A DNA stretch of 57,165 bases, filler included, from Jimgerdemannia flammicorona (taxonomy: Eukaryota): the NCBI GenBank assembly GCA_003990765.1. It is 2 parts of 2 records of this genome, joined end to end, with 100 filler letters (N's around TTAATTAATTAA, not from the genome) between each part and the next. Parts side by side here need not be neighbours in the genome. Positions count along the whole stretch, not along the records: positions 1 to 28,542 come from RBNJ01000554.1; 1 more part is not named here. The stretch is one strand, 5' to 3'. The stretch's first letter is position 1. The number at the start of each line of letters is the position of its first letter. Below, in pieces: positions 2,453 through 52,835 of the stretch. A program made the translations under genes and the position numbers. The notes beneath the pieces were generated by a model. The model made no database searches. It was not told the origin of the DNA and saw nothing but the letters and a program-made list of their open reading frames with translations.

Positions 2453-2511
2453 GTACTAGTAAGAGAGTGAGATTTAACTTTTCTGCTACTACTAATTATA
2501 ATAAATATATA

Positions 2512-4678: not shown

Positions 4679-4700
4679 ACTTGGTACTCATTGGCTGGTA
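4679..4700 (+). promoter_or_regulatory. Putative primer binding site
   Basis: act-TGGtactcattggctgg immediately after the LTR terminal CA. The cognate tRNA was not identified. Confidence 0.5.
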
Positions 4701-4734
4701 ATTTAAGATGAATCTCTCACTTTCAAGTTGAAAA

Positions 4735-5974: not shown

Positions 5975-6169
5975 TATGATATCTACAAGGACCTCAGTCA
6001 ATGCTACTTTTGGACAGCTAGCCAAAGTCCCTGCCTTCAGACAGCAGCTGAGAGTAGGACTTGTAACTACTGCCAAGAATCAAGAGTACAAGATTGTAGA
6101 AGCTCACAATGTATAGGAAGAATCTGAAAACTCAGGTGAAGAATCCAAAGAACAGCACAAGACATCAGC

Positions 6170-10058: not shown

Positions 10059-10371
10059 CAGCATGTCCTGTGACCAGCAGGCTATCTGTCTGGACCAATC
10101 TCTAAGGGATATAGCACTAGCAACTACTCATCCATGAGACTTTCAAAACCAGAGGAGTTTGAACTGTCAACTGATTGGTCAAGATCAGAATCAAGCCCTT
10201 ACTCTATATGAAGGGAGCAACCCTTTACCATTACACCAAAATACAAAGAGAAGACACCAGTCCATAAATACCACTTTTCGACCCCTTGTTAGAGGTTATG
10301 GGATCAGCAAATTTTTCAAGACTGGACTAATAAATAAGGATGCTTGAGAAGATCCTTATTCAGGAGGAAAA

Positions 10372-11086
10372 TATAACAGTGACCCCAGAATGATGACATC
10401 AGTACAAGAGACAGCCTTTCCTTACAAGCCACCAGATCAGAGCACAAGCAGATCATACAGTATATGAGATGAGCAATGATGACCAACTATGACTCATTGT
10501 GACCACAGTATGGGTATCTTGAGGAATATAAAAGAAGGATCAAGGAACTGTAGTAGCAGTAACCAATAAGACCCACCAATTCCAAAATAGCTCAAAGACT
10601 TACCACAAACAAAATGTCTGCTACTTGCCAAACCTCAAGGTCAAGGAACTACCAAGACACCTCAGTTGAAGAAAGGATGTTCCAAGACATCAAAAGAGCC
10701 ATGAGGACCCGCTCAAGAAGGACTCCTAGTATCAACCTGGGTACTGATGACCCTTATCATTATATCCTCTACTACTATGAAATGGAAACAAGGAGCACCA
10801 TTGCTATCAAATGCCTCCAAATATAGCAGAAGTATGAAATAGGAAACCTTCTCTGCTGGGAGTTCCCACAGGCCAGCCCTCAAGAGTTACAAGATGTCAC
10901 TCCCATGGATATATATGAAGTAAGGATAGCTAAAAAGATCCATCAGATCTTCAGACATGTACCATAGTTGATCCCCAACTTGGAGTATATTAGAATCTCA
11001 GATTTTAGAGACCTGTCATTCCACTGTATCAATGTACTAGAAACCAGAGTGACTACAGAAGCCCAGTCCACTATCACTCTCAATAG
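10372..11086 (+). repeat. 3' LTR of element 2, left part
   Basis: Matches 3165-3879. Interrupted by the hAT insertion. Confidence 0.93.
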
Positions 11087-11539: not shown

Positions 11540-14140
11540 ATGTTGACAGATCAGTCTTCAACAGTTCACAGTACTGATGATGCTTTAAGTCAAACATCCC
11601 TGATAGTTCCATACCTTCCATGCAATCCTTGCTCTGAAATCTGGCAACATTGTGCTAAAATAAGAGATGATGTTGTTTGTAATTATTACAGGTAAAAAAT
11701 TAAGATGTACCTATTGACACTTTTTGTTTGTTTTGACACACACATGATATTGTTTCATCCACCCCCATGAACTGCACCAGCTAGAAGTTCAAAATGCTTG
11801 GGGGTATGACTTTGAACATAAATTGACACATAAAAGACAAGTACTCTGACAAAATCAAAAAGAACACAGAGATAAATAAAATCGACATCCAAGCTGTGGT
11901 GGGTACATTTATCCGATTGCCCAATCATTTCTGTACCAACAACACTGTTTAATCAAAAATATTTAGTCATACTCTTTGGCAGAATTTTGAAATCAGCTCA
12001 TTTGCTAGATTGTATGCACAAACCAGCCATTCACAACCATCGAGAGTGATCAATTGCATAGCATCTTTGGCCTCCTCAAGCATGATTTATATTTGCCAAG
12101 TGCTGATACTATTTGCAAAGATGTCCTGGAGGCCTATAGGAAGGAGCATGACAATCTCTGCCAGACACTTCAGGTAAAATAAGGGCAGCACTGTGACCTT
12201 TGCAAGCTGAATTATATAAAAGAGCTCACCAATTTAACCTCACATTCAATAAGCAGAATTCAGCAGGCAAAATTTCGTTTATGATCAACACATGGATATC
12301 CCCTAGTGCAATTTTGTTTCTGGGCATTACCAGTCATTAGATTGACCTCGATTGGCAGCTTAAATCTCTCACCCTTGACTTCATCAAACTTGCTGGCCCT
12401 CATTCTGGAGACAACATCGTAGATGTTTTTATTAGTTGTATCTGGGAGCTTGGGATCACCACTAAGGTAAAAAAGGGGGGCTTGCTATCAGGTCAGTATT
12501 TTGAGTGAGGTCCTAAACCAAACCAGATTTTATTGGTTATTTATTTTTGCATAAATTCGCTGACTGAATATTTCAAGTACAGATTTTGGCTATTATGATG
12601 GATAATGCCACAAATAACTCAACATTTTTCAAAGTTTTAGTGGCCAGCCTCAAACAGAAAAATGTGGCCTTTAGTGCAGAAAGCTACCATGTGCAATGCC
12701 AGGCCCACGTACTGAACCTCACTGTTCAGGACTATCTTATACACATAGATAAAACATCCAAGAGAGGAGGGGTCCTGAGTATAATTTCCAAGCTGTGCAA
12801 TCTGGTTGTATTGGTCTGATCATCCCCACAATGATGAGACAAATTCACTGCATAGTATAGAGCAATCAGTTTAGCCTTGAAAGAGCTTATATTGGACATC
12901 TGTATATATTGGAACTTAACATTTACAATGATCCAGCATGTGCTGGAGTTTGCTGTAGTATGTGTTCTTTTTTTCTTCGGTTGGCTGAAGCAACTTGTTT
13001 TGGATAATTGAAGATTTATTAAAAAAAAAAAAAAAAAAAAAAAAGCCAATAGATTCAACAGTAGCTGTCAATAAGGAAATACGGGCTGAGGCTATAGGTG
13101 AAAGTGAGTGAGACATACTTAGGAATGTTGTCAGAGTTTTGGAAGTAAGTGGTGATTGCTCTGGCTCTACACTCATTTTGTCAGCCTCCACACTTGTTTT
13201 GTCTGTCTCTGCACAATGCAACACCTCACCACATATAACTACCAGTGTTTTGATGATTGTATGAAGGATATAGTCAAACAACAACCCCGACAATAAGCTT
13301 GGCAATACCAGTATACAACCTTCTGATTGACCAGCTAGAGGATAAGCTTGAGGACAGGCTAGAGGGTTGCAGTGATTTATGGTTGAGCCCGGATCAGAGA
13401 GATGCCATAGAGGTTGCTCTTAGCAAGCTCAGAAAGTACTACTCCCAAACAGATACTGCCATATACTCAATCAGTACAGGTATGTCGATGTCAGTGTATA
13501 GCCATTGTCCCTTCCAAAACAGAGAAACCCCCATAAAAACTCACTCTCTCCTCTCCTTCGAACAGTGCTGGACCCATGCTTAAAGCTACAATACTATAAA
13601 GATCAGGACTGAGAGCAGCACTTCATTGAGAGAACCAAGCAGGCCATAATCAAAGTGTACTGGAAAAATGACATGCTGCTGCAAGGTTCCAGCCAAAGTC
13701 CAGATGAATATGCTGAGAGATCCCTCCTGTCCTACATTTACTTCAGCAGAAAGAGGAAGAGGGAGTCATCAGTCGAAGTGCTGCTGTCAATAGACAAACT
13801 TACCATTTACCTTACCAGTGACCACATGATCTTGCTGGAGGGTGCAGAGGTGCTCAACTGGTAGAAGGTGGGTTGTCAGGTGGGCATTGGGCCAATTTAA
13901 CCCACCAATCTAACTACTGCTCTATCCACTGCTCTACCCACTGGGACATGCAGCTGTGTCAAATGGACTTCCCCAGCCTGTGTGGTATGGCTCAGGACTA
14001 CCTGGTGATTTCTGCCTCTAGCGCTCCTATCGAGCAGATGTTCTTAGGTGGGGTGGACCTCATTACTCCAAAGAGGTGTGTGCTGAATACTGAGACAATC
14101 CGGGCACATATATCTGAAGTCTTGGTGGGACTCAGGCTGC
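11540..14140 (+). pseudogene. hAT transposase, multi-intron, decayed
   Basis: BED-like SEIWQH..VVCNY, FLGITSH, MDNATNN, HVQCQAHVLNL (CxxH), YWNLTF (RWNST-like), dimerization domain FPSLCGMAQDYLVISASSAPIEQMF. GT-AG introns at about 12174-12256, 12467-12582, 13480-13565 and 13868-13953. Confidence 0.9.
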
Positions 14141-14261
14141 TAAAATTTGGCAGGTCCTGGGGGTTTGTGGATAAGTTGGTTGACCTTGTGGATTATTTAA
14201 TACCTTTCAAAAATAATAAAAAGGTAAAAACCCTGAGGACTCGGCCTGGAGTTTACAGTCT

Positions 14262-14915
14262 AAGTGGGCAGCAGTTGGCAGGGTTGGCAGCAGCGGCAGA
14301 GGGAGCGTGCAATATTTGTGGCCCTCTACCAGTAGCAAGGGGCAGCCCCAAGCTGTCAGTGCCCAGGTCGGTGGGTGGGTCAGCAGAGGGAGCATGCAAA
14401 ATTTGCAGCCCTCTGCTAGCAGCAAGGGGCAGCCCCAAGCTACAAGTGTCCTGGTCAGAGAGGTTGGCAGAGGGAGCATGCAAAACTTATGGTCCTCTAC
14501 CAGCAGTGAGGGACAGCCCCAAGCTGTCAGCACCCAGATCAGTGGGTGGGATTGGTGGGCATGGGGTTGGTAGAGGGAGTATGCAAAATTTGCAGCCCTC
14601 TGCCAGTAGTAAGGGGCAGCTCCAAGCCGCAAGTGTCTGGGACAGGTGGGGCAGGTGGAGGGAGCATGTAAAATTTGCAGCTCTCTGCCAGCAGCAAGGG
14701 GTAGCCCCAAGCTGTCAGCACCCAGGTCAGTGAGTGGGGTTGGTTGGCAGGGTTGGTGGGCACAGGGTCAGCAAGGGAGCATGCAAAATTTGCAGCCCTC
14801 TGCTGGCAGCAAGGGGCAGCCCCAAGCTGCAAGTGTCTGGGATGGGTGGGGCAGGTGGAGGGAGTACACAAAATTTGCAGCCCTCCACCAGTGGCATAGG
14901 GGCAGCCCAAGCCAC
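14262..14915. repeat. GC-rich minisatellite inside the hAT
   Basis: About 7 units with core gagggagcatgcaaaatttgcagccctctgccagcagcaaggggcagccccaagctg and two alternating tail types. Confidence 0.9.
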
Positions 14916-18422: not shown

Positions 18423-21400
18423 ATATATATTTCTCAATAAGATTACTATTGATAATATTATCTCTAATAAAGTAGTCATCTAGAAAGAGTGGTTCTTAGA
18501 TTATATCTCTTGATTTATTTATATAGTAGTATGTTAGAATGAAGTAATCATCTTATAGGATGGTATTATCTATCTCATATACTGAATATAGTATTAGTGA
18601 GTAGAGAAGAGATATGTTATCTTCACTTTCTCAGATTTGCTATCAGTGTATCTTTAGTAGATTATAGTACTACAAATTATAAGATTATAGTAAACTAGAG
18701 ATTATTCTTTATATTGCTCATACTCAGAAGATAGAGTTATTAGTTCAATCTCAAGAGTTATTTAGTGATATAGCTTATATTCTCTTGTCTCTTCATTATA
18801 GTTGAAGTAGTTAGATATAAATATAGATTGATACTTATACTAGTAGTTATTATTCTAATAGGTCTTATAGATAGTTATAAACTATTATAAGTCTATTGAT
18901 TAAGTTAATAGAGTGATCAGAGTTGGCAGAGATTCTTGGCTAGAGGATTTCTTAGTGTTAGAGATATTGTTGTCTTCTATTTTATCATCATCAAACTATA
19001 TTATATTATAGATGTTCTTTATAGTATATAGTTGTTATTTAGTTTGTGATAATTCTCTATTTTGATATATTGTATACTAGGTACATATATCTTTAATCTT
19101 AATTGGTAAGAGTTTGTTTTTATGAGTCTTATATGTATTTTGTAACTTTGAGTTAACTTAGCTTTATGATCTTATATGTGATTTCTGGATTTATTCTGAG
19201 AATGATATATAATTTCAGTAGTTTAGAGATTGTATACTTATAACTCTCTTTTTTTGTTTTGTTTTTGATATCTTTGTTAAGTTCTTCTAACTTAATCTAG
19301 TATTATTATATTATTTAGATAGTCAAAAGACCTTTTTTTCAGAAAGTAGTATACTTATAGTATAGTTGCCTAACATATTAAATTCATATATTAAAGAGTT
19401 ATATATTCAATACTATATACCAGAAGTAATTATGATGTCATTCACTACTGGAGAATTTCCTCTAAGGAATCTGTTTAAATGTTTATACCTCACTTTCCAC
19501 CAGTGATATAGAGAGAATAGACTGACTTTCAGTTATGCTTTTTTTATTTTTATTTTTATTTTTTTTTTTAGAAAACTAGTATTCTTCTATCTTAATTTTG
19601 CTAAGAGTGTAGCAGAGTTTTTAATTTATTTGTAATAATTATAAGAGTGCTTAATAGTATTTAGGAGGAGTAATATATATAATATAGCAATGGTTAATAT
19701 AGGAGTACTTTAACTAGTTTTTCAAAGAATTATATTCTTGAACTAAGTTAGTAGTATTCTAGAGATTTGTTCTGAATTTCTATATAGCATTATGGATTGA
19801 TAACCTTTCTATTTGATAAGGTATTCTGGATAATTCTTGTAGCTATATTTGTTGAGAATTTGTTCAACTTTGTATTTATTATAATCATTATATAATAATG
19901 ACAGATGCTGGTGGTTTTATAGTCTAATTTGGAAATCATTCATTGTTATTTTCATTATATTACTTAAAATATTAAATATTGAAGACTGGGTGAATTTTGA
20001 TAGTATCTAATAGAGCTAGTTTATAGAATATTAGAGAAATCTGTATAATAACTTCAAATAGTCTGATGAACTTACTGTTTAATATTATAAAAGATCTGTA
20101 CTTGAGGTTATCAACTCAGTATCCTTAGATATCTAGTAGAACTTTTTTACTGACATTAAAAGATTCTTCTTGGTAGTACTAGTTAATATACTGAGATTGT
20201 TGGTTTTGGGCTTGAGATAGATTCTCAATTGTAATTTGGCTCAAGTTGTATATCAGAGTAGAAATTCTTCAATAGCTTCAATAATAGAGATTTTATTTAT
20301 AGTTCTGATAAGAGTCAGATAGGTGTTTAGATTTTGTCCTATATTAGTAAAGAATAAGATTATTCTAAGTGAAGCTTGTTTGCTATTATTATAGATAAAC
20401 TCAACTGCAGTAAGGTATTCATACTAATTATCTTATTTATATAAAATATAGTTTCTTAGTATCTAGGGTTCAGTTTATTCTTTCAGTTTGGCTATCAGTT
20501 TTAAGATAAAAGACTATAGAGGTACTAGTTTCATTCTAAGTTATGAGTGTAGAGCTTTTCAAAAATAACTAGTGAATTTTTGATCTTGTTCACTAATAAT
20601 TATCTTAGAAAGACTATAATAATAGAAGATGTTATTAAGTAGAAGAGTGGTAATTTCAGATACTATTGCAGTTATAGTAGTAAGTATGAAGTAGGCTTAT
20701 TTGCTAAGATAATCTATGAAGAAAATAATAGCATCCTTTCTGTTCTTGATTTAGGATAGTTATATAATGAAGTCTAGAGAAATTTTTTTTCAATTAGTAG
20801 ATAGTACTGAAATAGAATAGTAGTCTAGGTTATGTAAGATTGAGGACTTATTGCATTAGTAGATATTATAACAAAGTGTCCTTCATGTGAAATGTATATG
20901 AGATGTATTATGCTTAATTGAGTGTGCTGATATAAGCTGAGTCGATGGGTTTGGTGAATATGGAAGTATGTACTTCCCAGGCCTACTATTCATATAAAGC
21001 GAAGAGGCTGCACATTTATTGTTCCTTCTCCAAAAGAGAAGGGCAGGATGGATTGCATAAACTAATTGCAGGAACTAATTAAGTATACAGGTGTAGTCTA
21101 TATGCTTGATTGTTAAGATGTGATACATACTCAGTCACTTAGAGAGATATTACATATAATGCATACTGAAACATTGCTAAGCTATTTGCCACTGACATCT
21201 TGCCAGGGAACTGAGACTAGGCTAACATTGTATAAGAAACTGCACAATGGGAACTGAGACTGAGCTAAGATTGCATAAGAAATGGTGTGGCAGGAAACTG
21301 ACACTAAGCTAAGATTGTATGAAAGACCTAAAAGATTGCATGATAGTGGTTTTTCTATGGCTTTGGCCACTTTGCCGAAGTTTGAGCTATGTTCATAACT

Positions 21401-23203
21401 CTAAGAAGTGATATAGGTTTTCAACTAGTTTGCCATATAGAGTCAATAGAAGTTTTGAGAGATAACTTTATAATATTTATTAAATCCTAAATGTCTAGCT
21501 GTTGGAGCATTATAATATTTAAACAGAATAGTTCTTTGAAGATCATAATTGTTAGAGATATACAATCTGTCCTTATAATAGATAGTTTTATTCTTTAATT
21601 AGTATTGATGATACTGAGAATATTTACTGATATCCTAATTACTCAGGATTTTCTGAAGTGCTTGAGCTTCTTTATTATCAGTATATACTGTAATAATTTG
21701 TTCTATAATGGAATTGATAACTAAGGTGAGAGTTTATATAACTTCTTTAATTGATGATCTAGAGATAGTATCAGTAATACTATTTTTTTTACCATAATAG
21801 TATTGGATTTTATAGTTGAAATTGGTGAGAACTTTCATCTATCTAGCTTACTTTCAGGAAAGAGTAGTCTGGGTCTTGATATTGATCAATTTTTTATAGT
21901 CTATTAATACAGTAAAGTATGCTTCTTTGAGATATATATAGATACTATTTAATCAGGGTGTCTACAATAGCTAGTATTTTTTTCTCATAGGTGGCATAAT
22001 TGATCTTGATACATATTATTAAACTTATAAGAGTAATAGGCCACAGAATATCTCTTATATAAATACTACTCTAAGAGCTAGGTCAGAGATATCAGCAGTA
22101 ACTTCATATAGCAGAGCAAGATTTTTAGCTTAAAGTACTGGAGTAGTTATCAGGATATCTTTTAAGACTTAAAAGGCTGTATTTTATTCCAGTCTCTATT
22201 TAATAAAGTTGTTAAAATCTTTTTCTTACTTTGTTATCAAGAGTTGTTCTTCTTTTTTACTATACTTAGTCAGTTAGGGGAAAATAGTAGCAATCTTAGC
22301 AAAGTTTACAGTAATAATTTGCTAATTCTAGGAATAACTGAAGGTCTTTAAGCTTCTTAGGTCGGGCCCATTTCTTGATTATAAAGATTTTGCTAGAATC
22401 TAATATAATTTTATTAAGAGAGGCAATATGTCTAAAGAATTAAATTTCCTTTAGAAGAAATTCACATTTACTAAGTTTTGCATAAAGTTGATTTTTCTAA
22501 AGCTTCAGGAGTACTAGTTCAAAATATTCAAGATATTCCTCTAGGGTTTTACTGAAGACTAGAATATTATCAATATAGATAATAATAAATTTATCTAGAT
22601 AAGAGTACAGGATAGTATTTATCAGAGTCTGGAAGGTTGTGAGAGTATTAGTTAAACTAAAGAGCATAACTAAGAACTCAAAATGTTTATAATAAGTTCT
22701 GAAGGCAGTTTTGTAGATATCTTCTTTCTTTATAGCAATTTGCCAATAATTATTTCATAGGTCAAAAGAGCTCATGAATTGTAGATTGATAAGTCTGTTA
22801 AAGATTTTATCAATTTGAGATAATGAACAATAGTTCTTGATAGTCTATTCATTGAGATCTTAATAATTAATATATATTTGAAGGTCTCTTCCTTTCTTGA
22901 TGATAAAGAGAACTAATACACTAAATAGTAATATACTAGATCTAATGAATTCTTATTCTAGGAGTTCATTTATCTCTTTCTTGAGTATGTTAATTTCTCT
23001 AGAAAATATATAGTAGATTGACTTGAAGGTTGGTTTGACACCTGATATGGTCTTGATTATATAGTCAACTACTCATTTAGATAGTAGCTCTTTGAGATAT
23101 TCTTGAAAATATATCTCAAAATTTTTAAAGTAGAGATCTTACATGACTATTAACTTTGGAAAAATCTTCTTTAAGATTCTCTAGTTCTCCTTTGAATAGA
23201 TAT
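18423..23203 (-). mobile_element. Heavily decayed Ty3/gypsy element 4 (RT-RH-IN remnants, PPT, proximal 3' LTR 18423-19242)
   Basis: Minus frames give DIYKTAFRT, YIDNILVFS (RT, ~22560-22720) and IISEQDQKF (IN, ~20580-20610). A purine tract at 19243-19260 abuts the LTR start, which is homologous to 2452. Confidence 0.75.
20867..21397. mobile_element. Probable solo LTR or small insertion within the integrase remnant
   Basis: Less decayed ~530-bp block with decayed TG..CA-like ends and three ggaactgagactaggctaa-like repeats. No clean TSD. Confidence 0.45.
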
Positions 23204-23414
23204 TGTGGCATGCAGTTAGTATAATGAACTTCAACTGCATGGCTCAATGTGTGCCACTAGTGAAGCGCGCGATGGATAACTGAAGGCATTGGTGACATTT
23301 GCGGGTTGATGGTCATGTGACAGGTCGTTCGATTCATACGGTAATTGATAATAGTGGGAGCTCCATTGTTCAACGATGGCTCAATTGTTTGATGATGAGG
23401 TCATTCGGTTGTTC

Positions 23415-23531
23415 AAAACTTGCTCATATAGGGCTATCCACTCAGGAAGATAGTGTCATCCTTGTGCAGGGGCCATGCTAATCTTCTCTGTATCATTCCA
23501 ATTTTTTCAAGTATCAGCAGTCCTGAAGGAC
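23415..23531 (-). ncRNA. U6: U6 snRNA-like gene or pseudogene with a divergent 3' end
   Basis: Minus strand: GTCCTTCAGGAC (5' stem-loop) ...AAAATTGGAATGATACAGAGAAGATTAGCATGGCCCCTGCACAAGGATGACAC..., i.e. ACAGAGA box, AGC triad and ISL of U6. Ends at TTTT. Confidence 0.9.
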
Positions 23532-24249
23532 TTGACTCATTCGGTTGTTCAACGATAGTGGCTCAATTGTTTAGTAGATAAGGGCATTCCTGGCGGCAAT
23601 TAACTTGGCAGCGAACTTGAATTTATGCGGCAATGGCCTTGGCTTTAAGCGGTTTGTGGTGCCATAGGTCGGGAATCAGTCGATGGCTTGCTCATCCGTC
23701 TTGACTTGTTAACTTGAAAGGGCAAGATAACTTGGGTCTTTGGTGGTCATTTGAGTATCTTGGCAGTGGGTCGGTCTTTGGCGGTCTAGTATCCTTTGGC
23801 TGGGTGTCCTTGGGTTTCTGGGTCTTGAATCTCGAGTGGCGGTCAAATGGCGGTGGTCCGAATGGTGGTCTGAATGCACGGAGGTCATAGTCTTGAATCC
23901 TTGGCTGGGTCTCGGGTCTCGAATGGCGGTGGTCAGGTAACATTTTCTTTTCGTAGCAAGAGAAAATTCTTTAACTCAAACTTCTGAGTGATCCATTGCT
24001 CTAGGTTGTTATCTTGTTCTCAGAATTTATCTGGTCTCTTGGAGGCAGTGAAGTTTCTCGGTAATTCCTTTTTACTTTTAAACACAAACTGGCTGAGGTT
24101 TATTCACTCTAAGAATATGGGTTATTTATACAAGTTTGCTAGCTATGGGCGCGGCTAAGGTATACTATATTGTGGCAAACATTTGCTATGCTATTGGCTT
24201 GCATGATGTGAGGTGCAGGCTATTGTTTACTACAGATTGGGTTATAGGG

Positions 24250-24515
24250 GATAGCAATGCTGAATTTGGACCTGCTGACAAGATGCTGAAAATGGTGGTA
24301 CTGAGTAGCAACACTGGATTCAGATGAGCTGACATGATATGATGATTGTTGCCAGAAGCGGTTGTGGAGGGTGGCAACACTGAATTCAGACCTGCTGACA
24401 AAAATGCTGAAAACAGTGGTACTGGGTAGCAATGCTGGAAATGGACTTGCTGACAAAAATGCTGAAAACGGTGGTACTGGGTAGCAATGCTGGAAACAGA
24501 CTTGCTGACAAAAGC
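24250..24515. repeat. ~55-bp tandem repeats in U3 of the element 3 LTR
   Basis: Repeated tgctgacaaaaatgctgaaaac(a/g)gtggtactgggtagcaatgctggaaa. Confidence 0.85.
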
Positions 24516-24607
24516 CGGGTTCTCATGGCTGATGAGCGGTACTCTAGAGGGAATAGTACCCTTTGTCTATGGCAGGCAAATCTTGCTGGGTTGTGATTTC
24601 TTCTTCA

Positions 24608-25534
24608 TCATATGTATCTCTCCTCAAAGGGGGGAAGCACTGGCCAAGAGGTGAGGGGGTAGAAAAGTGGCCAGTCATCTTCAACAACATTTTCCAGTCC
24701 CTGAATTGCTTGAATGTGGACAGAGGACTGGTAGACTCTCTGTTGCTCCTCTTCTTCTTCTGAAGACTCGTCAGTTTCAGTGTCAGAGGGGGTTTCTTCA
24801 GGGGCAGGGCCTTGGAGTTCTTGGGCCTCCTCTTCAAAGACAGGAACCTCTTGGGCTTCTTCTTGATTCGGTTCCCAAATGATGAGGTGTGAATTGTGGC
24901 TGACAAGGTGGTGGGTGGTTGGGGTAGCTCCAATGGGTGCTTCTATGGTAATGGGCGGTCCTTCAAATATCTCCATAAGACTCATTAGGTGACCTTGATG
25001 GTTGTCTCGGAGTGGGGTGGTGTGGAAACCTGGCTGAGTAGGTTTGGTTTGTTGGCTTCCTATAGCGATGCAGTTGCTGCCAATAGCATTGACTACTTCA
25101 GATTCTATCCAGTCAGCATCTTCAGTTGAAAGGCAGGAGAGGCTGCCAGCCATTACTCCTTGCAAGTATGCTATGACCCAGGGAATATGGTGGAAGATTT
25201 GGTGGACACGGAGGGCTCTCTTGATTAGCCGGCTAGTGGTTATCAATTCAGTAATAAGGCCTTCCCAGTCGTCTTCTTGAGTCTCATTGCAAAGGCGGTA
25301 TCTGATTTCGTAGTCATGCCAGAGGGTCATTCGTTCAGTAGTGTCTTTGAGCTATTGGGTCATGATATACTGGTAGTTGATGAAGTGTCCAAGGTCCTCG
25401 GTGTAGAAGTTCAAGTGTTCGGAAGTATCTGGGTGCCAGATGGCCTTCTTAATAGCTTCAAAGATCAGGGTCTTTGGACCAGGCAAAGGGGTAGAGTGGC
25501 GGGAGGTCTGGTTGGTTTGGCGAATGGGAGGCAT
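24608..25534 (-). pseudogene. LTR-encoded ORF of unknown function (family 3), 309 codons with one internal TAG
   Basis: ORFs 25352..25573 and 24608..25330 are in frame: MPPIRQT...LWHDYEIRYRL...RVHQIFHHIPWVIAYL, then an acidic tail. Confidence 0.8.
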
Positions 25535-25939
25535 TGTGTGGTGGGTACTTGGTTCTTTGGTGCTGATCCCCAAGGCAGAGTTTGGTTTCTTTAAATAATG
25601 TGGTCTTCATTTTGGCTCGGATCATCTTGTCTTCTTTTAGGATGATCACCTAATGGATCAGGCTGTCTATTTGATTGTCATGCCATTATGTCATCTGATC
25701 TTAGCAGTCACCGGTACTCCATTGTCAATTGTGTACGTCACATCTGCCCCTTGCAAAATTAGAGCCATTCTCAGTGGTGAAGGTTACACAGAGTTGGGTG
25801 GTCTTAACTCCATGGACGAGCAGAGTGTCGGCACATTTGTAAGGACTGGCCATCCTTGTCTAGGGCGAGGGCTCCCATAGTGACAGCTGGGGGTTCGAAC
25901 CCATCAGAAATAGTATTACTTGTAATCTGAGGCAATTTC

Positions 25940-27288
25940 TTAGTAATAATGTCTGTCATGTGGATGGGCTTGAGTCTGGTTCCAATGCTGTTGGCTTTTT
26001 TGAGTTCTAAGTGAAACGTCCGTCGTATCTCCAACAGAGATGACACAGACAGAGTGAACAGGATTGTTCAAATGCATTTTGCTTCTCTTGAGTAGTAGAG
26101 TCTTATGCAGTTGTGGTGTATCTTGGTCTTGAGTATAACTCCATCCAAGGTCTTGAGTTGATAAGTATGGTTTGAGAATACTTGGTGTATGAGATAGGGG
26201 CCTTCCCATTTTGGTTCAAGCTTGGCACTTCAATTTCCTTCTATGATGGTACGGTACACTAGAACCTTTTGTCCAATGAGCAGGGGTTCGAGGTCGGCTT
26301 TGTGGTCATAGTACCTCTTTTGTCATTCTTGTGCCTTGGCGATAAATTCTTGTGCCTGCTGGTGTACATCGTGTAACCAGGTAATCTCTTCTGTGACTCA
26401 CTTTGACAGGTCTAGCTGGACTGGTTCAGTAGGATCTTGTGCTTCTCGGCCATACACCAAATAGAAGGGGGTCTGTTGAGTAGCAGTTGCCTTAGAGGTA
26501 CAGATACTAAACAGAATTGCCAGTAGATAGGTATCCCAGTTTAGTTGATCTCCGGTTCTACTGAGACCTCACTTGATGGTCTGGTTCATTCGTTCAGTGA
26601 GTCCATTTGCCTGTGGGTGATAGGCTGTTGTTGGTCGTAGCTTGATCTTGAAGTTGCTCACAAAGGTCTTCATGGCTTGGTTGACGAATTCTTGGCCTTG
26701 GTCTGTAATGATTTCCTTGGGCACACTATGGTGGCTGAAAACTTCATCATACAGGATCCCAATAATTGTCTGAGCATTGGCCATCTCAATGGCAAAGGCT
26801 TCAGGCCATTTTGTCAGGTGGTCTTCAATGGTGAGGATGTAGCATTTTCCTCAGCTGGTTACTGGTAGGGGTCCAATAATATCTATTTCCAGTCTTTGAA
26901 AGGCTCCAGCTGGTGCTGCGATTGGTATTAATGGTGCTCTGTTGGTAGGCTTCTGTCGGTATCTTTGGCAGGTATCACATTGTTGAATGTGTGTTGAAAT
27001 TTGTTTTCTCATCTTGGGCCACCAGTATCGCTTCTTGATTCTTGCGATTGTGGCACCAATTCCTCAGTGTGCATTTTGGTCATGATTTGTTGTCAGGATC
27101 TTCAATATTTCTTTTTCTCTTGGAACTCGGATATACTGCTCTCCTTCTACTCTCCAAAGTTCACCATCGCCTTCTTGGAATTTCTTGAAATTCCTTTGGA
27201 TAAACAACTTGTGGGCTGGTTGGATTCCTTTCTTGAAGCTTCTATGGTGCAGACTCCAGGTGAGGGCAAGGTGCAATTCTTGGTTCAT
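25940..27288 (-). pseudogene. Integrase of element 3, separate ORF starting MNQELHLAL
   Basis: The ATG overlaps the RH stop (ATGA). Motifs YWWPKM, CDTCQ, ITDQGQEF, WEGPYL. Confidence 0.85.
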
Positions 27289-28542
27289 TTGGGTGAGCGG
27301 GAAGTAGCCTTCTCTTGTGGGGGCTCCTTCCCTTCTTGTTGGTTTTGCAGGATTCTTGACAGGGTATCGACATTGGAATTCTTAGTACCTTTCTTGTAGA
27401 TAATAGTGAACTGATATTCTTGCAGAGACATGATCCATCTAGTGAAGATTCCTGAGGGCTCTGGCTTATTGAATAACCATTGTAGAGCTTAATGGTCAGT
27501 AATGAGGGTGAATCTCTTTCCCAAGAGATAGTGTTGGAAGTGGTCCACAGCCCAAACTACTGCTAGGCATTCCAACTTAGTGGCTCCATAGTTCGCTTGT
27601 GTTTCATTCGTGGACTTGCTAGCATATTCGATAACATGCTCCCTCTTTTGGTCATCTTGCTGAGACAGAATTGATCCAAGTCCTAAGGCTGAGGCATCAG
27701 TTGCCAGGATGAATGGTTTGCCAAAGTCTGGTCGCACCAGGACAGGGGCTTTGGTAAGGGCCTTCTTGAGTAGGTCAAATGACTTTTGTTGTTCTTCTTT
27801 CCAGTAGAATGGTTGGTCCTTCTTGGAGATGTCTTGGAGAGGTGCTGCCTTATCTGAGAACCTTGGAATGAATCGTCGATACATAGTAGGATGCCAGCAT
27901 AAGGAAAGATAGGGTCTCCTTTGCTGAGGTCGGGGTTGGGTAGTTCTTGACTTTCTCCACCTTGCGGGGGTCGGCATGTGTTCCTTGAGCTGAGACAACA
28001 TATCCCAGATATTCGACTTGATATTTTCTGAAGAAGCACTTCTTGGCATTGAGTCTGAGTTCTGAATTTCGAATGGTATTGAATACTTCGCGGAGGTCTT
28101 GCAAATGCTGCTCAAATGTCTCAGAGTAGATGATTACATCATCTATGTACACTAGTACATTTCTTCCAATGAGGTCCTGGTAGATATAGTTCATCATTCA
28201 TTGGAATGAGGCGGGTGCATTGCAGAGTCCAAAGGGCATTTGTAGGTATTCATACTGTCCTCGTCTGGTGATGAAGGCCATCTTGCAGATATCTTCTTTG
28301 GCAATGGGTATTACTTGGAATCCTTGGAACTGGTTGGTAGTGGTCATGTATTTGGCTTTTCCAAGGGCATTGATGAGGTCATCAATTCTTGGCAGTGGGT
28401 AGGCATCTTCTGTTCTGACTTTGTTGAGTTTTCTGAAATCCACGACTAATCTCCATCCTCCTTTCTTTGGTACTATGATTGCTGGTGAAGCCCAGGGGCT
28501 TGATGATGGTCTGATGACTCCATTTCATAGCATTTCATCTAT

Positions 28543-28642
28543 NNNNNNNNNNNNNNNNNNNNNNNNNNNNNNNNNNNNNNNNNNNNTTAATTAATTAANN
28601 NNNNNNNNNNNNNNNNNNNNNNNNNNNNNNNNNNNNNNNNNN
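28543..28642. other. Assembly gap or artificial linker
   Basis: 44 N, then ttaattaattaa (stop codons in all frames), then 44 N; exactly 100 bp. Confidence 0.95.
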
Positions 28643-31600
28643 TTTTTTTATAGTCCCTTGGACTCCGTCTTTATTCCCAATCTATGAATAAGTATACAAA
28701 AACACCACCCTCTACCCTATCCCCATCGGGGGACCTCTCCCCACCTCTTCATGTGTAAAGACCACCCTCTCACCAACAACTCCAACCCTCCCACCACTCT
28801 GACCACAGATTTTTACCACCAAGCGGTGCCTCTGACCCCCCTGCAGCCCCCAACCAAGCCACCAGCCTGTCAAGGTATCCTCCATAAGGTACTGCCACTG
28901 TGATAACTGGCTCCCCAAGCTCTGTTGCCTCCCCTTCTTAAATACAAATAGCCAGTGACTGGCCAGCCCAACCCAAATAGCCAATGCCCAGTCTAGAGTA
29001 ATCTACTCCTCCCCTACCCCTCCTATCAATCAATCCCTCAGATCCTCCCACCTCCCCCATATATCATCACCCCTATGCCTTACCCCCAAGCAGTCCCCAA
29101 TGGCCCGCCAAAAGTCACCCAACACCTCACACTCCCCAAGCCAATGTTCTGGTGTCTGTACAAATCCCCCTTCCTGCCCTACATTATGGCACTTCTCACA
29201 GTCAAAGCAGCCCCCCACAACAAGGTGTCCTGAGCAGAAGTTAAGCATCACATTTCTCCTCAGTACATGCTACCAGACCACCCAGTACTTCAGTGGCATC
29301 CAATTTTTCACCATGGCACTCCAGGTCCAAACCCCCTGCCAGTCCCACTCCTCACCAATTCCAACTCCTTGCCAACCACTAGGCTACAGATCCTGGCCTG
29401 GTCCCCTTTGGCATTTGATTCCATCACCAATGTCGAACTCCAGTAAAGGCATGCCTCCCAGAAGAATGCTGTCCCATCTCCACATCACCAGGCCCCAAGC
29501 CCTCTCCCCCTTATCCCCTTGCCAGCGAATATCAATACAGTATACCCCCTCAGCTATCCCCCACCAGAAGCCTTTATATCGCAGTTGCTCAGTATTCTGA
29601 AGCCCAACTAATGAAAAAAGATCACCAGTCAAGCCTCTTGGTGATGTCCGCCTCTCCCATACCTTCTGCAGCAGAGGAACCCAGCCCCCTCCATGCAACT
29701 CCACTGCCCTCCTAAGCCACTATGCCCTCAAGCAGTGTAGTCTTTTGGGGAAGTCCACCAGCCCAAGACCACCTCTCACCCCCAGTAGGGACAGTGTCTC
29801 CCAACCAATCTGACTCTGTCTGCCAGCCCAAATCCATCCCTTGGCCACCTTCACCAATCGCTTCACCACCCAGGCTGGGAAGTCCAGATGATAAGCCAAA
29901 TACCACAGTTTCAGCAGCCAGTATACATTCAAAATCGAGATCCTTCCTGCCAGAGAGAAGTGTCTTCTCCCCCAACCCCACAGGTCCTCCTCCCAAATTC
30001 CAATCCTCTGCTCCCACCACAGCCTGGGCAGAACAGACCCATAGACTGACAAATATATGCCCAAGTACTGCACTACCTCTCTGGTGGGGAAAATTGTTCC
30101 AATAATCTCTCCGCCCACCAGTCCATTGCCTAGCACCATCGTTTTGCACTTGTGCCAATTCAGCTTCACCCCAGAGTTCTCCTCATACCACTCCACTGTC
30201 TTCTTGAGCTCCTCGACATCCACAGTTACTCCCAAACCAACCACCATGTCATCTGCAAAGACTCCAACTTTTCAGCCAATTCCATAGATAGAAAGCCCCA
30301 CAATCCTCCGCCAAATTCGGTCCATTAGAGGCTCCAAGGAAAGTGTATACAAAATGGGGGACAGTGGGTCCCCCTGGGGCACTCCCCTACCCAGAGGGAA
30401 TGCTACCCCTCTATGTCCATTACACACAAGCGCAGCCCTACTTATTTCCAGTAGGCTGACCATCACCACCTGAAATGGGACCGGAACCCCAATCCTATCC
30501 AACACTTTCGCCAGCCAGACTCACCACACTCAGTCATAAGCCTTCTCCTGGTCCAAGAAGACAAGATGCCCATCCAGTCCACAGGCTCGAGCACCCTCAA
30601 TAACTTCATATACCCAGGCCATGCTATCTCAAATAAGCTGACCCCCTATGAAGCCCCTCTGCTCAACACCCACAATTTGTTGGGCCACCTTCTGCAGCCT
30701 TGTGACCACCACCTTAGTCACCAACTTTCTGTCCATATCTAGCAACATTATCGGCCGCCAGTTCTTCCAATCCTCTCGCCTTCCCTTGTTCTTATAAAGT
30801 AGTATCACCAGTCCAAGATCCTGCTCCCCCACCCATCTCCCTGACTGCAATATAGAGTTACACAGTGCTGTCAACTCTCCCAATATGTCCAGGACTCCAA
30901 CCATTCGCTTCCAGAAGTCCAAGGGGAGGCCATCCTCCCCAGGTGCCATATCTGAGGCTGTCACGGCAAGAACCTGGTGGATCTCGTCCTCCTTTACAGG
31001 TATCACCAGGTCACCTAATCCCTTAGCTCGTGGAGGGTACCAATCTTCTAATGTTTGTTCAATGGCTGTAGCATCCACCCCACCCTCCTCCTCACTCCAC
31101 AATCCACTCCATCACACCTTCAGCATTCCAAGGATATCCTGTACACTATGCACTAGTCTACCATCTGAGTCAAGTACCCCTTCCCACTGCTGCTGTACCC
31201 TTCTTGCTCGAAGTGTCCTCGTAAGAAACTTGGAAGGCCTCTCCCCTTCCTCCAGCCCCTGCCAATGAAGCCATGCCACCAGGCCTTATACCCTTGACTC
31301 TTCCTCTTCCCACAGCACCTGTTGTAGTTCCCCAACCTCCATCTTTACTCTTGTTATTCTCCAATCCTCCTCTCCCTCCACTACTGTCAGACTCATCCAC
31401 TCCTCCAGAAGCCTAGCCAATCTAGTAGAAGCCCAATGTACTCTCTGCCTTCACTGCCTCTCAGCCACTCTGCCAGCCTTGCTCCAATACATCCTGACCA
31501 TCTCTTTTATTCTCTTCCACTGAACCCCAATTGTGGCCCCTTCCTGCCACCAATTCGCCACCTTCATCTAAATGTCATTTGCCCACTCCTCCCACTGGGA

Positions 31601-34509
31601 CTCATCATTCAACAAGGAGGAATTCAGGCGCCAATGTCCAGGCCCATCACCACTTCCCCCAAAACACCCCTGTCCCAAAAGGCCCCAGTGGTCTGACCAC
31701 GGACACCATTCTACCTCTAGCACCTTCTAAACATCATGGCCCCAGCAGTCGGCTGTCAGAATCCAGTCAATTCTTGTCCCCAGACCTCTAGCCCAATGCG
31801 TATATATCCTCCTGTCTACCCAGTATTCCCTACCAGTATCCACCAGTGCTCTTAGCCTTTCGACCTCCTCCGACATTGCCAGCCCCCCACTCCTGCTCTC
31901 AGCACCCCATCCTCCATTAGTTCTATCCAGCCATACATTCTGAACCATATTGAAATCACCTCCAAGTATATCCAATCTAGCTTCAGCAAGGATCCCACTC
32001 TCCAGGAGCCCTTTCACCCAATCCACATGCTCCCCCCACACAGCAGGGCAGTAACAGGAGCCAACTGTAACTGGCTCCCAACCTGCATGAATCCACTCAC
32101 CCCAGACCAGTCTCTCCCCCCAGCTCCTCATATTCTGTATCTCCCCTCTGCCTTTCCAAACCAGAATTCCAACCTTGCTGTTCCAAATCGCCATGCCACC
32201 CTATTCCTTAGTCCATTCTATCCTATCAGAATCATCCTCACACCTGACATCCTGCAAGAGGAAGAGATCAGCCTCCAATCCCTTCAATCAAGTAAAAATG
32301 TTCCTGCATCTAGCTGCACCCCTTAGCCCATTCACGTTCAAAGAAAAAATATTGGTTGTACTGTTCATAATGAAATATGGTTTGTATGCAATCAATCTCT
32401 ACTGCTCCATGCCCATCTCCTCCTGTGCTGTGTCCAGATTGTGTTCAGCCATCACCTCCTCCTCTTCAGCCCTCTGAGCCTCCAGTCCAGCCAACAGCTC
32501 ATTCATCTCCTCATCAGCCTTCTCCTCAAACTCCTCTCTGTACTTGATGCAAGCCTTCTGCCAAAGCTGCAACCCATGACACCTGTTCCAACAGTACTCA
32601 GCCTTCTCTCCAGTGACAACTGCCAACTCTGCCTCCCTCTCCTTGTCCACCTCATACCCTTTCTCCTCCAGATATACCGCAAGAATTTCCACCTTCAGTG
32701 CCATCACCACTCCTTCCCCCTGCAAAATTCTTGCCCAGTGCTCGTCACCCATCCCACGCAAGTCTACCTCCTCCAGCTCTTCTGCCACCAAGTTGTTCAT
32801 CATCTGGCACATCCAAAGTAGGTTCCCCACCTCCTTCCCACCAGGGGTCACTGGCCTTCCTCTGTCCAGCATCATGGTGTCAGCTCCAGCACTCACATCC
32901 TCATCCCACACCTCCGGGACATCCACCAGTTCCTCCTCCCTGGCTGCCACTACCTGGTCCCCATCCATTACCTCTGGAACACTGAATTTCACCTACTGGG
33001 TCTCCAGCATCGACACATCCTCCCCAGATTTGTTCCTGGAAGCTGGGCCACGCCTGATAAGAGGGGAAGGGGTGGGGGAGTTCTCCCAGACTTCCTCCCA
33101 AACCTCTAAGGTGCCATCTGCATATGGGTCATTAATCTTCACCTCCTTTGCCTTCCCTGTCTTTGCCCCATCATTCCCACTCCTCTCACCAGCCCAGACA
33201 CTCACTTCGGCCCCTTCTGCACCCATCTTCATGCTCGCATCCTTCTGTGGTCCACCCCCCAGTTTAGCCAGCAGATTCTTCTGCCTCTTCCACCTCTGAG
33301 CCCTTTCCCACTGCACCTTGTCTACTTGAATCCTCTTCCCATCCACTATCTCCAGGTGTGTCAACTCCTCAAAAGTCTTCCAGGCCTTGGCATGCCATTC
33401 TACAGCCCCATCCAGCTCCTCCAGCACTTCCAATAAATCCTCCTCCTCTTCTTCACTTCCTTTCACCCACGTCACCTTGCACAGGAATGCACCCCAAACC
33501 ATTGCTGAAGGCCAGTCCCACATCTTCCCAGTAGCCTCTTTTCCGGCCAGCTGAATCCTCACATCCACATCCCCAGTCCTGAGTGTGGTCCCTTCCCAGA
33601 CCCTGAATCCGATATTCACCACCTCACCATACTCTGCCATGACATCCTCCACTCTCTTCCTCATCTCCATTGCCATCACCATGGGGACTCCTTTTACCAG
33701 CAGTTGGACCACCCTCAGATCCCATTTCAAACACCTCGCCATTGGAACACACACCTCTCCAACCACCAGCCCAACCCTCAGTGCCTCCTCCAGCAGTTCA
33801 ACCTCCTTAAAACCCACCTCCACCTCCTCTATTCCCTTCAAGAACTTCACCGAAGCTGCTCCAGCCACCTGCTTAGCGATAAGCCCCAACACCATTTTCG
33901 CCGTCACTGCTAAGCCCCAGAAACACAGTGTAACTGCAAACGCTGAGATCGACTTCTTGAGTAATAGAGCCACCACCAGTTCTGTTACACCATCTGCCAG
34001 ATCCCCGGGCCTCGTGCCCTTCCCACCATTCGGCTCACCATCAGTAGTCCCATCTAGATTTTTTTCCAGATCACCTGTCACACCCCTATCAGCAGTCCCC
34101 GCCCCAGCTGCTACCCCCCCAGCTCCCCCCCTATGGCCCTCTAGAGAGGTACCCCCAAGAGGTTGCTGCCTGGCAGCCTTCACTGGTACCTTCCCCCCTC
34201 ACAGCCAGCTCTCCAGTCCAGCCCCTTACCGACCCCCCTTCACCTTCTCTGCAAATCTCACCCTGCCAGACCCTTGATCTCCAGCTCCGCCCCCTCCTCC
34301 ACTATGGCCTCCCACCAGCAGGCCCCTCATACTTCCCCCCAAGCCAGGGCCTCTCCCCACTTGCTGCCATTCAAACGCTCCAGGGCCACCCTGCCCAGTA
34401 TGCACCTCTGGATGCTTGTTGCTCACCATAATACTAGTAGCTTTTCTCCAGAAACTGTATTAAAAGTATTGCCAAAGATCATGTAACCTGAATGTTACTG
34501 GAGAAAGGT
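28643..34509 (-). mobile_element. L1/Tx1-like LINE copy A, essentially full length
   Basis: ORF1 ~34183-32399 (RRM-like EYGEVVNIGFRVWEG, acidic tail). ORF2 32368-28712: APE MNSTTNIFSLNVNGL, GGDFN, TRIDW; RT KNWRPI, GVPQGDPLSP, FADD. aataaa plus A tail at 28643. Confidence 0.92.
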
Positions 34510-43388: not shown

Positions 43389-43394
43389 ATTATT

Positions 43395-48897: not shown

Positions 48898-48938
<41 letters not shown>

Positions 48939-49042
48939 GAGTTATAACCCTCATAGTTTTTATTAGAAGGAAACCTAGACTATATAGATCAAACCCCTCT
49001 TCCACCCCAACCCTAAGTACTGTCTCTCTATTAATCTAAGCT

Positions 49043-49377: not shown

Positions 49378-49501
49378 CCTAGACTAGCTATTATTCCACA
49401 ACTCAACTATGCTGGGTACAGTAGGACTGAATTACTCATATCTCATTCTATACACTATACTCTTTTTATTATTAGAGAGAAAATGACTATTTATCTATAA
49501 C

Positions 49502-52700: not shown

Positions 52701-52835
52701 TATAACTCATTATATTACTATAGTCTAAATATAGGAAATATAATATCTATCTAATAGAAGTCTTATATAATACCCTACTTCTAAAGATATTTAAGAAAGA
52801 ATATATTTAAAAACTCTTAGACAATAGAGTTATCT

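Follow-up and report, generated by a model that had tools for sequence, protein, structure and literature searches.

The window, that is the whole 57165-nt stretch of DNA analysed here, carries on its minus strand a real, full-length U6 snRNA sequence, which we regard as probably a processed, tailless U6 snRNA retropseudogene lying in retrotransposon-derived DNA. In an Rfam scan of the whole window with 4227 families, U6 (RF00026) was the single match at gathering score; with 80.6 bits compared to a cut-off of 44, an E-value of 6.4e-19 and an alignment over model positions 1-105 of 105, the sequence qualifies as a member of this family. The core (AAAUUGG...GAUGACAC) is identical to the Rfam consensus at 50 of 52 positions. 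The ACAGAGA box, the AGC triad and the ISL are all intact, and both the 5' stem-loop (GTCCTTCAGGAC, 23531-23520) and the 3' oligo-U (TTTT, 23418-23415) are present, which bears out the description of a minus-strand U6 with these elements in an earlier note on this DNA. The register of the 5' stem in the cmscan alignment differs from that of the stem-loop read by eye. The ctatc/gatag hairpin, described in the earlier note as a new element of the 3' segment, does appear in the MFE fold (23453-23448 with 23439-23434), and the MFE of the whole unit has a z of -0.04. This 3' hairpin is atypical for the lineage. The same note had proposed a pairing of the 5' and 3' arms through atatgagca and tgctgatac. 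By inspection, 7 of these 9 positions are paired; the best duplex between the U6 5' segment and the 3' tail reached -9.4 kcal/mol, a value equalled in 11% of 1000 shuffles, and the proposed pairing is thus within chance.

The retropseudogene reading is based to a large part on the limits of the insert. As pointed out before, a 16-bp direct repeat starts at 23401 and at 23537. Its two copies are exact, are the only two exact occurrences in the window, lie 136 nt apart and both flank the U6 unit directly. When up to 2 mismatches were allowed, shuffled sequences gave a mean of 0.03 matches to the 16-mer, and 1 of 100 shuffles reached 2. The length of 16 bp fits the direct repeats of ~7-20 bp that flank retropseudogenes. 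Between the repeats, the insert (23536-23417) has 120 nt; it starts 5 nt ahead of the 5' stem-loop and extends to the oligo-U. Its limits agree with the termini of the mature RNA, as expected of a retropseudogene; the absence of gene flanks is deduced from the continuity of the target motif. This continuity is seen in a local repeat, the spacing of which is 182 nt at present and 46 nt without the 136-nt insertion. Since the same local motif is found on both sides, 46 nt apart without the insertion, the flanks were formerly one continuous sequence. The insert has no A tail. Its GTT end runs on into the TT of the 16-bp repeat, and the resulting 2-nt TT overlap between the 3' end of the U6 RNA and the start of the repeat is too short to be significant alone. 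At the 5' junction, there are 5 extra nt (GTCAA) and there is no microhomology.

Table 1 Features of the U6 locus and of the remainder of the window discussed in the text. Positions count along the whole window.
Feature	Position	Strand	Remarks
Rfam RF00026 (U6) match, full model	23527-23424	minus	80.6 bits, E 6.4e-19
120-nt insert, full-length U6 copy	23417-23536	minus	GTCAA + GTCCTTCAGGAC + ACAGAGA + AGC + ISL + 3' hairpin
Upstream 16-bp repeat copy (TTGAACAACCGAATGA, minus sense), read as target-site duplication	23537-23552	minus	exact match
Downstream 16-bp repeat copy	23401-23416	minus	exact match; first two T complete the U6 TTTT
Second unit of pre-existing local repeat (aaacaattgagcca..tcgttgaacaa)	23366-23390	minus	partner at 23545-23572
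TATA box TATAAATA	24123-24130	minus	~594 nt upstream of U6 insert; followed by AATAAA, 24104-24099
Tandem repeats upstream of TATA box	24240-24513	minus	55-nt unit 24387-24513 plus weaker copies
ORF-X, conserved ~325-aa frame within proposed LTR	24611-25534	minus	ATG 25534-25532
Purine tract ggggcaga then TG, putative LTR start (TGTGACG at 25742)	25741-25750	minus	proposed from the sequence alone
Lower end of GC ~0.45 block (...GCCACA)	23204	minus	sharp composition change
Older, degraded, AT-rich gypsy below 23204	RT 23108-22311, IN zinc finger 21598-21446	minus	
Degraded Ty3/gypsy pol (RT, RNase H, integrase)	26101-28542	minus	5' side cut by piece end
Artificial spacer N44-TTAATTAATTAA-N44	28543-28642		joins two pieces
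LINE, other piece	29723-32200	minus	colinear RVT_1/RT fragments; second copy ~6.8 kb further on

According to the reading that we favour, a U6 RNA of mature length would have been reverse-transcribed directly at a staggered chromosomal break, and the enzyme was most likely a LINE endonuclease/reverse transcriptase acting by target-primed reverse transcription. Priming may have involved pairing of the last two U of the RNA with AA on the nicked strand, and repair of the stagger would then have produced the 16-bp target-site duplication (TSD). The insertion would have gone into non-coding DNA within the 3' portion of a block of retrotransposon origin, and this portion may represent R/U5 of a gypsy LTR. 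Such a one-off retroposed U6 with a 16-bp TSD was the second reading offered in the earlier note, and it is supported by the exact repeat, the limits at the RNA ends, the lack of a promoter carried along and the LINE in the window. The RT ORF of this LINE (29723-30271) matched residues 696-876 of human LINE-1 ORF2p with an E-value of 1.4e-7; the element, located on the other joined piece, is of the endonuclease type according to this L1-like RT. Exo_endo_phos (AP-endonuclease) gave a weak match of 19.4 bits, under the cut-off of 24.5, and the piece carrying the LINE ends in A7 (28649-28643). Since the window contains a LINE whose reverse transcriptase is L1-like, a one-off, tailless U6 retropseudogene is the best reading of the locus, and the LINE is a candidate source of the machinery.

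Several observations weigh against the retropseudogene reading. As the window consists of two joined pieces, sequence above 28642 need not adjoin the U6 locus, and the LINE, lying across the artificial spacer, marks the presence of such elements rather than adjacency to U6. The implied nick site on the primed strand, GTTCAA/CGAT, is unlike the L1 consensus TTTT/A (Doucet 2015, PMC4476161), the GTCAA at the 5' junction is left unexplained by the model, and full-length, tail-less U6 copies flanked by a TSD are not a main class in the human survey (table 1 of PMC4476161).

The CpG content of the insert raises a further point of this kind. The 120-nt insert contains no CpG, and its flanks are CpG-normal with observed/expected ratios (o/e) of 0.92 and 0.83. 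With 18 CpG in the 427 nt of the flanks, ~5 would be expected in the insert (Poisson P ~0.006). All 4 alignable CpG sites of the U6 consensus are TG or CA in the copy. Decay of the U6 copy in place through methyl-CpG was rejected, as both flanks keep normal CpG levels, and the decay of a TTCG that the earlier note had assumed likewise lacks support as an event in place. A CpG-less insert between CpG-normal flanks argues that the source RNA was already CpG-free, which in turn implies either an unusual true U6 in the host or a template that was already a variant copy, and this implication also counts against the retropseudogene reading.

U6 genes have an upstream TATA near -30 together with a PSE/USE, or A and B blocks of the yeast type. 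By inspection of the flanking sequence, there is no TATA near -30 of the unit, and the nearest B-box-like string downstream of it matches only TCGA; judged by this inspection, the unit lacks the Pol III promoter of its own that a functional U6 gene would have. With no TATA at ~-30 and with the 16-bp repeat lying directly against the unit, an upstream Pol III promoter did not come in together with U6, and whatever upstream signal there might be would belong to the host or a TE. ARAGORN detected 0 tRNA genes in the window. The U6 copy is probably inert.

The block surrounding the insert shows signs of an LTR between 25742 and 23204, namely a PPT-like ggggcaga followed by TG, an end in ..GCCACA, tandem repeats and a TATA box, the last of which the earlier note had placed upstream of U6 and which is indeed found there (TATAAATA, 24130-24123). 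The proposed LTR would measure 2539 bp. We consider these limits doubtful, since a conserved frame of ~325 aa, termed ORF-X, would be enclosed by them. The LTR reading is also weakened by an R+U5 that would have ~890 nt, by the missing second copy (see below) and by a switch of the CpG o/e inside the segment, from 0.09-0.18 over 24204-25203 to 0.7-0.9 over 23204-24003. When positions 20001-30000 were compared to the window by BLAST, 6 rows were obtained, 5 of which were internal to the tandem repeats at 24240-24513 and one of which was a stretch of 50 nt with 82% identity (27529-27578 versus 8601-8552). This comparison revealed no second LTR copy, the 5' side of the gypsy element being cut by the piece end, and no match of the U6 flanks elsewhere in the window.

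ORF-X contains one in-frame TAG (25354-25352) and a frameshifted C-terminus. Using BLASTP with the ORF of the window, three relatives with 76, 76 and 66% identity were found, the first of which is an intact protein of 325 aa with the same starting Met; the cluster has 6 members. In view of these relatives elsewhere, the block around U6 represents a repeat family. ORF-X belongs to no Pfam family, a PDB profile search produced nothing below an E-value of 0.49, and the Atlas search gave no usable match. Alignments against viral contigs and genome contigs resulted in 50 and 16 pattern matches, respectively, 0 of which were confirmed, and the AlphaFold model was left out of the analysis at a mean pLDDT of 34. 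In the vicinity, the Rfam matches on 23560-26600 were two weak ones, both far under the gathering score, and a 92-aa ORF at 23695-23970 had no homologue in a protein search. All 8 of 8 loci found with a 20-nt U6-junction pattern in metagenome contigs were due to chance, with no similarity beyond 20-24 nt. Among sequencing runs, four soil metagenomes came up, with word shares of 0.10, 0.09, 0.06 and 0.00, and none of them is recorded as RNA. A 40-aa frame in the flank (23296-23415) had 4 matches with 30-35% identity to long repetitive proteins, which were judged spurious.

We regard it as unlikely that U6 entered the progenitor of an LTR/TE family, by either mechanism, and is now present in all or many of its copies, be it with a Pol III or regulatory role or as a mere passenger; that the unit is carried by every copy of the family is quite improbable. 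The U6 core is nearly perfect, the unit and the gypsy pol share their orientation, a TATA box and tandem repeats in a U3-like layout lie upstream of the unit, and the block has relatives, as judged from the three for ORF-X and their cluster of 6. Moreover, LTR elements bearing small RNAs are known: the TRIMp3 elements Cassandra (5S), Helenus (tRNA) and Ajax (5S) described by Kojima 2024 (PMC10886601) likewise harbour a sense-oriented sequence derived from a Pol III small RNA within LTR-retrotransposon-derived DNA. The literature searched for LTR families with small RNAs, including the Discussion of Kojima 2024 (PMC10886601), yielded 5S- and tRNA-bearing ones only. As described by Kojima 2024, however, TRIMp3 elements are non-autonomous and measure 311-1263 bp; every copy has the small RNA, in each of its two LTRs, and the RNA provides an internal Pol III promoter (PMC10886601). 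For U6, an internal promoter is not reported. The U6 locus is no such short element, as the neighbouring gypsy encodes RT, RNase H and integrase and the proposed LTR alone has 2539 bp, and the 16-bp duplication on either side of the unit is typical of a later insertion. A family-wide Pol III module is mechanistically weak, since the unit contains its own Pol III terminator, the TTTT of which would stop Pol III, since the neighbour is a long autonomous gypsy and not a TRIM, and since the 5'/3' arm pairing that would compensate is within chance. In a region filled with TEs, a random U6 retrocopy in TE DNA is to be expected. The two copies of the 16-mer are identical, CpG included, compared to 9 stops in 738 codons of the neighbouring pol, and this weakly favours an insertion younger than the element copy. 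From prior expectation and such weak age arguments, we infer that the insertion happened once, in the present copy, and not in a family progenitor. The locus would be notable only if genome-wide data placed the U6 unit in all sibling copies. It would then represent the first LTR-retrotransposon lineage found to have a spliceosomal snRNA module, situated in the transcribed leader, where this module could affect how the element RNA is packaged, spliced or silenced.

Two further explanations concern the origin of the U6 unit itself. Ty3 integration targets Pol III genes, and U6 does adjoin LTR-retrotransposon DNA here, so that one might think of a genuine, functional host U6 gene beside which a gypsy element came to lie by a similar targeting. 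The catalytic motifs are all intact, a Pol III terminator stands at the end and both flanks are CpG-normal in a window with an overall CpG o/e of 0.15. In the Ty-type case, however, the LTR is the newcomer beside a genuine gene, whereas here U6 is the newcomer and is bracketed by a duplication of host sequence. This exact 16-bp duplication lies within a once-continuous repeat motif, there is neither a TATA near -30 nor an LTR end (..CA) abutting the start, the window has no other Pol III gene (no tRNA by ARAGORN, U6 as sole Rfam match) and the surroundings are degraded TEs, and we therefore hold a functional U6 gene to be highly improbable. Little credence is also given to a capture in virus-like particles, in which the gypsy RT would have switched template twice, thereby copying co-packaged U6 RNA into element cDNA, and the 16-nt repeat would be a re-copied stretch instead of a TSD. 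Copies of snRNAs associated with LTR retrotransposons, some of which were possibly formed together with the LTR insertion, have been described (Giles 2004, as cited in Doucet 2015, PMC4476161), selective packaging of U6 by HIV-1 was reported (PMC1885669), and the 2-nt TT overlap at the 3' junction would be compatible with a switch. On the other hand, a clean 16-nt duplication exactly around an RNA of full length is what the repair of staggered nicks classically produces, template switching does not explain why the enzyme should go back to a site 16 nt behind the one it had left, and the 5' junction shows no microhomology.

The retropseudogene reading has parallels in other genomes. Doucet 2015 (PMC4476161) describes snRNA pseudogenes with flanking TSDs, the priming of which took place on the snRNA itself via complementarity at the 3' junction, and for which the terms 'template choice' and 'tailless retropseudogenes' are used (PMC4476161; Schmitz 2004 cited therein). 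The U6 copy resembles them in its RNA length, its TSD of the 10-20 bp class, the lack of a promoter carried along and possibly a short complementarity between RNA 3' end and target (PMC4476161). It differs from them in that the implied nick site is not TTTT/A and in its host, which is no mammal and which, to judge from the TE content and from relatives of soil type, may be a fungus or another soil eukaryote. In humans, U6 copies flanked by a TSD (table 1 of PMC4476161) are L1/Alu chimeric, poly(A)-ended or 3'-truncated, whereas the present one is full-length and ends in its own oligo-U. In the fungus Magnaporthe, Gogvadze 2007 (PMC2104539) found chimeric retrocopies made by a LINE (MINE) with flanking repeats of 10-20 bp. 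These share with the U6 copy the small non-coding RNA, the copying by a LINE RT (presumed for U6), the non-mammalian genome and the direct repeats of 10-20 bp, but they are chimeras in which the WEIRD RNA is joined to the MGL LINE or Mg-SINE (PMC2104539), whereas no LINE or SINE tail lies between U6 and the repeat here. As read here, the U6 retrocopy is an ordinary by-product of retrotransposition, in which the reverse-transcription machinery of a TE-rich genome would have made a DNA copy of a Pol III snRNA. The retrocopy may serve as a snapshot of the host U6 at the time of insertion, CpG-free and with an extra 3' hairpin. Annotators should label the locus a U6 pseudogene, and neither a U6 gene nor a feature of the LTR family.

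As to the neighbouring gypsy element, its RNase H ORF gave no match against viral contigs and, in a protein search covering longer proteins only, 84 matches with a best identity of 54%, and thus no close sibling pol of at least 376 aa. The pol contains at least 2 frameshifts and, in 738 aligned codons, 9 in-frame stops, 8 of which are TGA. A reassigned TGA codon was considered and rejected on the basis of the CpG depletion of the window and of one TGA, the only one of the 8 placed in the alignment, which corresponds to a conserved Arg (FQR) and fits a change of CGA to TGA.

The U6-like unit on the minus strand of the first record was identified by Rfam as U6 spliceosomal RNA (RF00026) scoring 80.6 bits where the gathering score is 44 (E 6.4e-19). 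This match covers the full model (1-105), is the sole Rfam match in the 57165-nt window, and from AAAUUGG to GAUGACAC equals the U6 consensus at 50 of 52 positions. The description of this unit in the earlier note was real and accurate in most respects: the ACAGAGA box, AGC triad and internal stem-loop are intact in the Rfam alignment, the 5' stem-loop GTCCTTCAGGAC and the closing TTTT run are present, and the ctatc/gatag hairpin in the non-consensus 3' part is included in the minimum-energy fold. The suggested duplex of the two altered arms (5' with 3'), on the other hand, is not above chance (best duplex -9.4 kcal/mol, equalled in 11% of 1000 shuffles), and shuffles fold as stably as the unit as a whole (z = -0.04).

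Positions of the features discussed in the text
Feature	Position in window	Strand	Remarks
Degraded Ty3/gypsy pol upstream of U6	RT 28542-27883; RNase H 27935-27354; integrase 27072-26101	minus	
T-arm/B box-like site	~25905-25890	minus	GGGTTCGAACCCCC
Putative LTR	25742-23204	minus	
ORF-X	24611-25534	minus	~325 aa, downstream of the gypsy integrase; ATG 25534-25532; in-frame TAG 25354-25352; 247-aa ORF 24611-25351
Tandem repeats in putative LTR	24387-24513		55-nt units
TATA motif upstream of U6	24130-24123		TATAAATA, then AATAAA
16-bp repeat copies	23552-23537; 23416-23401	minus	TTGAACAACCGAATGA
Insert	23536-23417	minus	120 nt, bracketed by both 16-bp repeats
U6 match (RF00026)	23527-23424	minus	5' stem-loop 23531-23520; TTTT 23418-23415
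Older, more decayed gypsy	RT 23108-22311; integrase zinc finger 21598-21446		7 stops in 266 codons of RT
Further gypsy element	3160-10666	plus	300-nt direct repeats 7207 nt apart, 91% identical
303-aa ORF in GC-richer patch	13822-14730	plus	weak hAT C-terminal dimerisation match, E 4e-4, just under the Pfam cut-off
Spacer (artificial)	28543-28642		N44-TTAATTAATTAA-N44
Two LINE copies	29723-34340; 36917-41155	minus	direct orientation, ~6822 nt apart, 71-80% identical

The 16-mer that the earlier note had seen flanking the unit occurs exactly twice in the window, spaced 136 nt, whereas dinucleotide-preserving shuffles gave a mean of 0.03 matches with up to 2 mismatches. At its 5' edge, the insert carries five extra nucleotides (GTCAA) ahead of the U6 stem-loop; its 3' edge is GTT, and the downstream repeat supplies the rest of the oligo-U run with its two leading T. 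Outside the repeats, both flanking sequences share a local motif, aaacaattgagcca(cta)tcgttgaacaa, whose copies (repeat families D1 and D7) are 182 nt apart today and 46 nt apart if the 136-nt insertion is removed, and thus the flanks were formerly one continuous sequence. An RNA-length U6 copy has been inserted into this sequence, duplicating 16 bp. No TATA-like box was found near -30 of the unit, which the repeat directly abuts; an upstream Pol III promoter was not brought along with the insert.

The unit is best explained as an ordinary U6 retropseudogene that landed in retrotransposon-derived DNA and duplicated 16 bp of its target site. Such a processed pseudogene would have formed at a staggered break, as the RNA-length insert, the lack of gene flanks and the duplication suggest, and reverse transcription may have been primed on the oligo-U end of U6, with which the 2-nt TT overlap fits, although it is too short as proof. 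Two details of the insert fit less well: the implied nick site differs from the TTTT/A consensus of L1, and the 5' junction carries five extra nucleotides. Doucet et al. 2015 (PMC4476161) describe snRNA pseudogenes flanked by target-site duplications as products of 'template choice' ('tailless retropseudogenes'), for which the snRNA itself is the initial template and base-pairing of the nicked target with the RNA aids the start of reverse transcription. The human U6 copies with target-site duplications in their table are chimeric, poly(A)-ended or 3'-truncated, whereas the copy in the window is full-length and tailless. In a fungus, retrocopies of a small RNA flanked by 10-20 bp repeats were reported to be made by a LINE (Gogvadze et al. 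2007, PMC2104539). The LINE present in two copies on the second record has RT fragments in colinear order and matches an AP-endonuclease weakly; one RT ORF matches residues 696-876 of human LINE-1 ORF2p (E 1.4e-7), and this piece closes with a short run of A (A7) after AATAAA. Both copies lie in DNA with a strong strand skew (G-rich/C-rich).

The alternative that the unit is carried family-wide by sibling copies of the LTR or transposable element is unsupported, and we consider it quite improbable. In the search for relatives of the site, a scan of metagenome contigs gave 8 loci, all of them chance matches, no relative was found in the viral and prokaryote-genome collections, and protein searches with the frames beside the U6 site gave no usable match. 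The literature searches turned up no LTR family reported to contain U6; what comes nearest is a passage of Doucet et al. (PMC4476161), which cites Giles et al. 2004 for a few human snRNA copies associated with LTR retrotransposons. As indirect evidence on the question, the known LTR elements with small RNAs, Cassandra, Helenus and Ajax, are described as TRIMs of 311-1263 bp that use the internal Pol III promoter of the small-RNA module (Kojima 2024, PMC10886601), whereas the neighbour of the U6 copy is a long autonomous gypsy element and the unit closes with its own terminator. According to Kojima 2015 (PMC4494074), reports of an internal promoter are lacking for snRNA genes. Furthermore, the two 16-bp repeat copies are still identical and keep one CpG each beside a pol with 9 stops, and a random retrocopy would hit transposable element DNA regardless, the window being almost wholly composed of it. 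The U6 copy would become notable if genome-wide data placed the unit in sibling copies, and is of low interest otherwise.

With regard to its template, the insert contains no CpG in 120 nt compared to six in the Rfam U6 consensus, and all four alignable consensus CpG sites read TG or CA. The flanks (213 and 214 nt) have CpG observed/expected ratios of 0.92 and 0.83, with 18 CpG in 427 nt, a density at which about 5 would be expected in the insert (Poisson P ~0.006 by our own arithmetic). These CpG-normal flanks speak against decay in place. As the insertion cannot be older than its flanks, the template U6 RNA was CpG-free before copying. It came either from a variant copy or from the genuine U6 of the host, which would then share these variants as well as the additional 3' hairpin.

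The LTR limits proposed by the earlier note have evidence on both sides. The start is a TG preceded by a purine tract, the end is ...GCCACA at the change in composition, and the tandem repeats and the TATA motif followed by AATAAA together resemble a U3 layout. Against the limits, R plus U5 would measure ~890 nt, the CpG ratio is 0.09-0.18 at 24204-25203 compared to 0.7-0.9 at 23204-24003, and a conserved reading frame, ORF-X, is enclosed; no second copy of the putative LTR was found within the window. The 247-aa ORF-X frame downstream of the TAG has three relatives in the protein collection (76, 76 and 66% identical to the window ORF by BLASTP), and thus the block is a repeat family. With the first relative as alignment reference, identities of the remaining three rows are 86, 74 and 79%. 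This relative is intact and 325 aa long, its start (MPPT...) coincides with the ATG in the window, and the 90% cluster to which it belongs counts 6 members, of which one comes from a 19.4-kb contig. Differences between the copies are mostly changes of R to H, C, W or Q, as CpG decay would give; no Pfam family was matched, and the searches assigned ORF-X no function. The relatives were found in metagenome-type sources. Whether the block is an LTR carrying an ORF in its U3, an element of its own or a mosaic matters little for U6, whose target is in each case retrotransposon-associated non-coding DNA. The T-arm/B box-like site, which lies past the end of the integrase and ahead of the putative LTR, gave no tRNA by ARAGORN and nothing by Rfam.

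Over 738 aligned codons (26101-28542), the gypsy pol on the U6 side carries 9 in-frame stops, 8 of them TGA, and it has at least 2 frameshifts. The only one of the eight TGA that was placed stands at a conserved arginine, which fits a CGA to TGA change given the window-wide CpG observed/expected ratio of 0.15. This pol is truncated where its piece ends, and gag and the 5' LTR fall outside the data. The central TTAATTAATTAA of the spacer puts a stop into each of the six frames. As the window is two pieces joined at this spacer, features to its left and right need not be genomic neighbours. Below 23204 the composition falls to AT-rich, and the stops in the older gypsy RT are mixed TAA, TAG and TGA in AT-rich sequence, as after RIP-like mutation. 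The further gypsy element at 3160-10666 encodes a zinc-knuckle gag and, upstream of RT, RNase H and the integrase zinc finger, a dUTPase (E 5.7e-25). This domain also occurs in several of the database sequences most closely related to the U6-side gypsy. The 303-aa ORF may be a DNA-transposon remnant. Appreciable CpG was seen only at 1-3000, 54001-57165 and the U6 flanks, with 2 CpG in 42001-45000, none in 45001-54000, and a GC content of 0.26-0.39 across 42001-54000.
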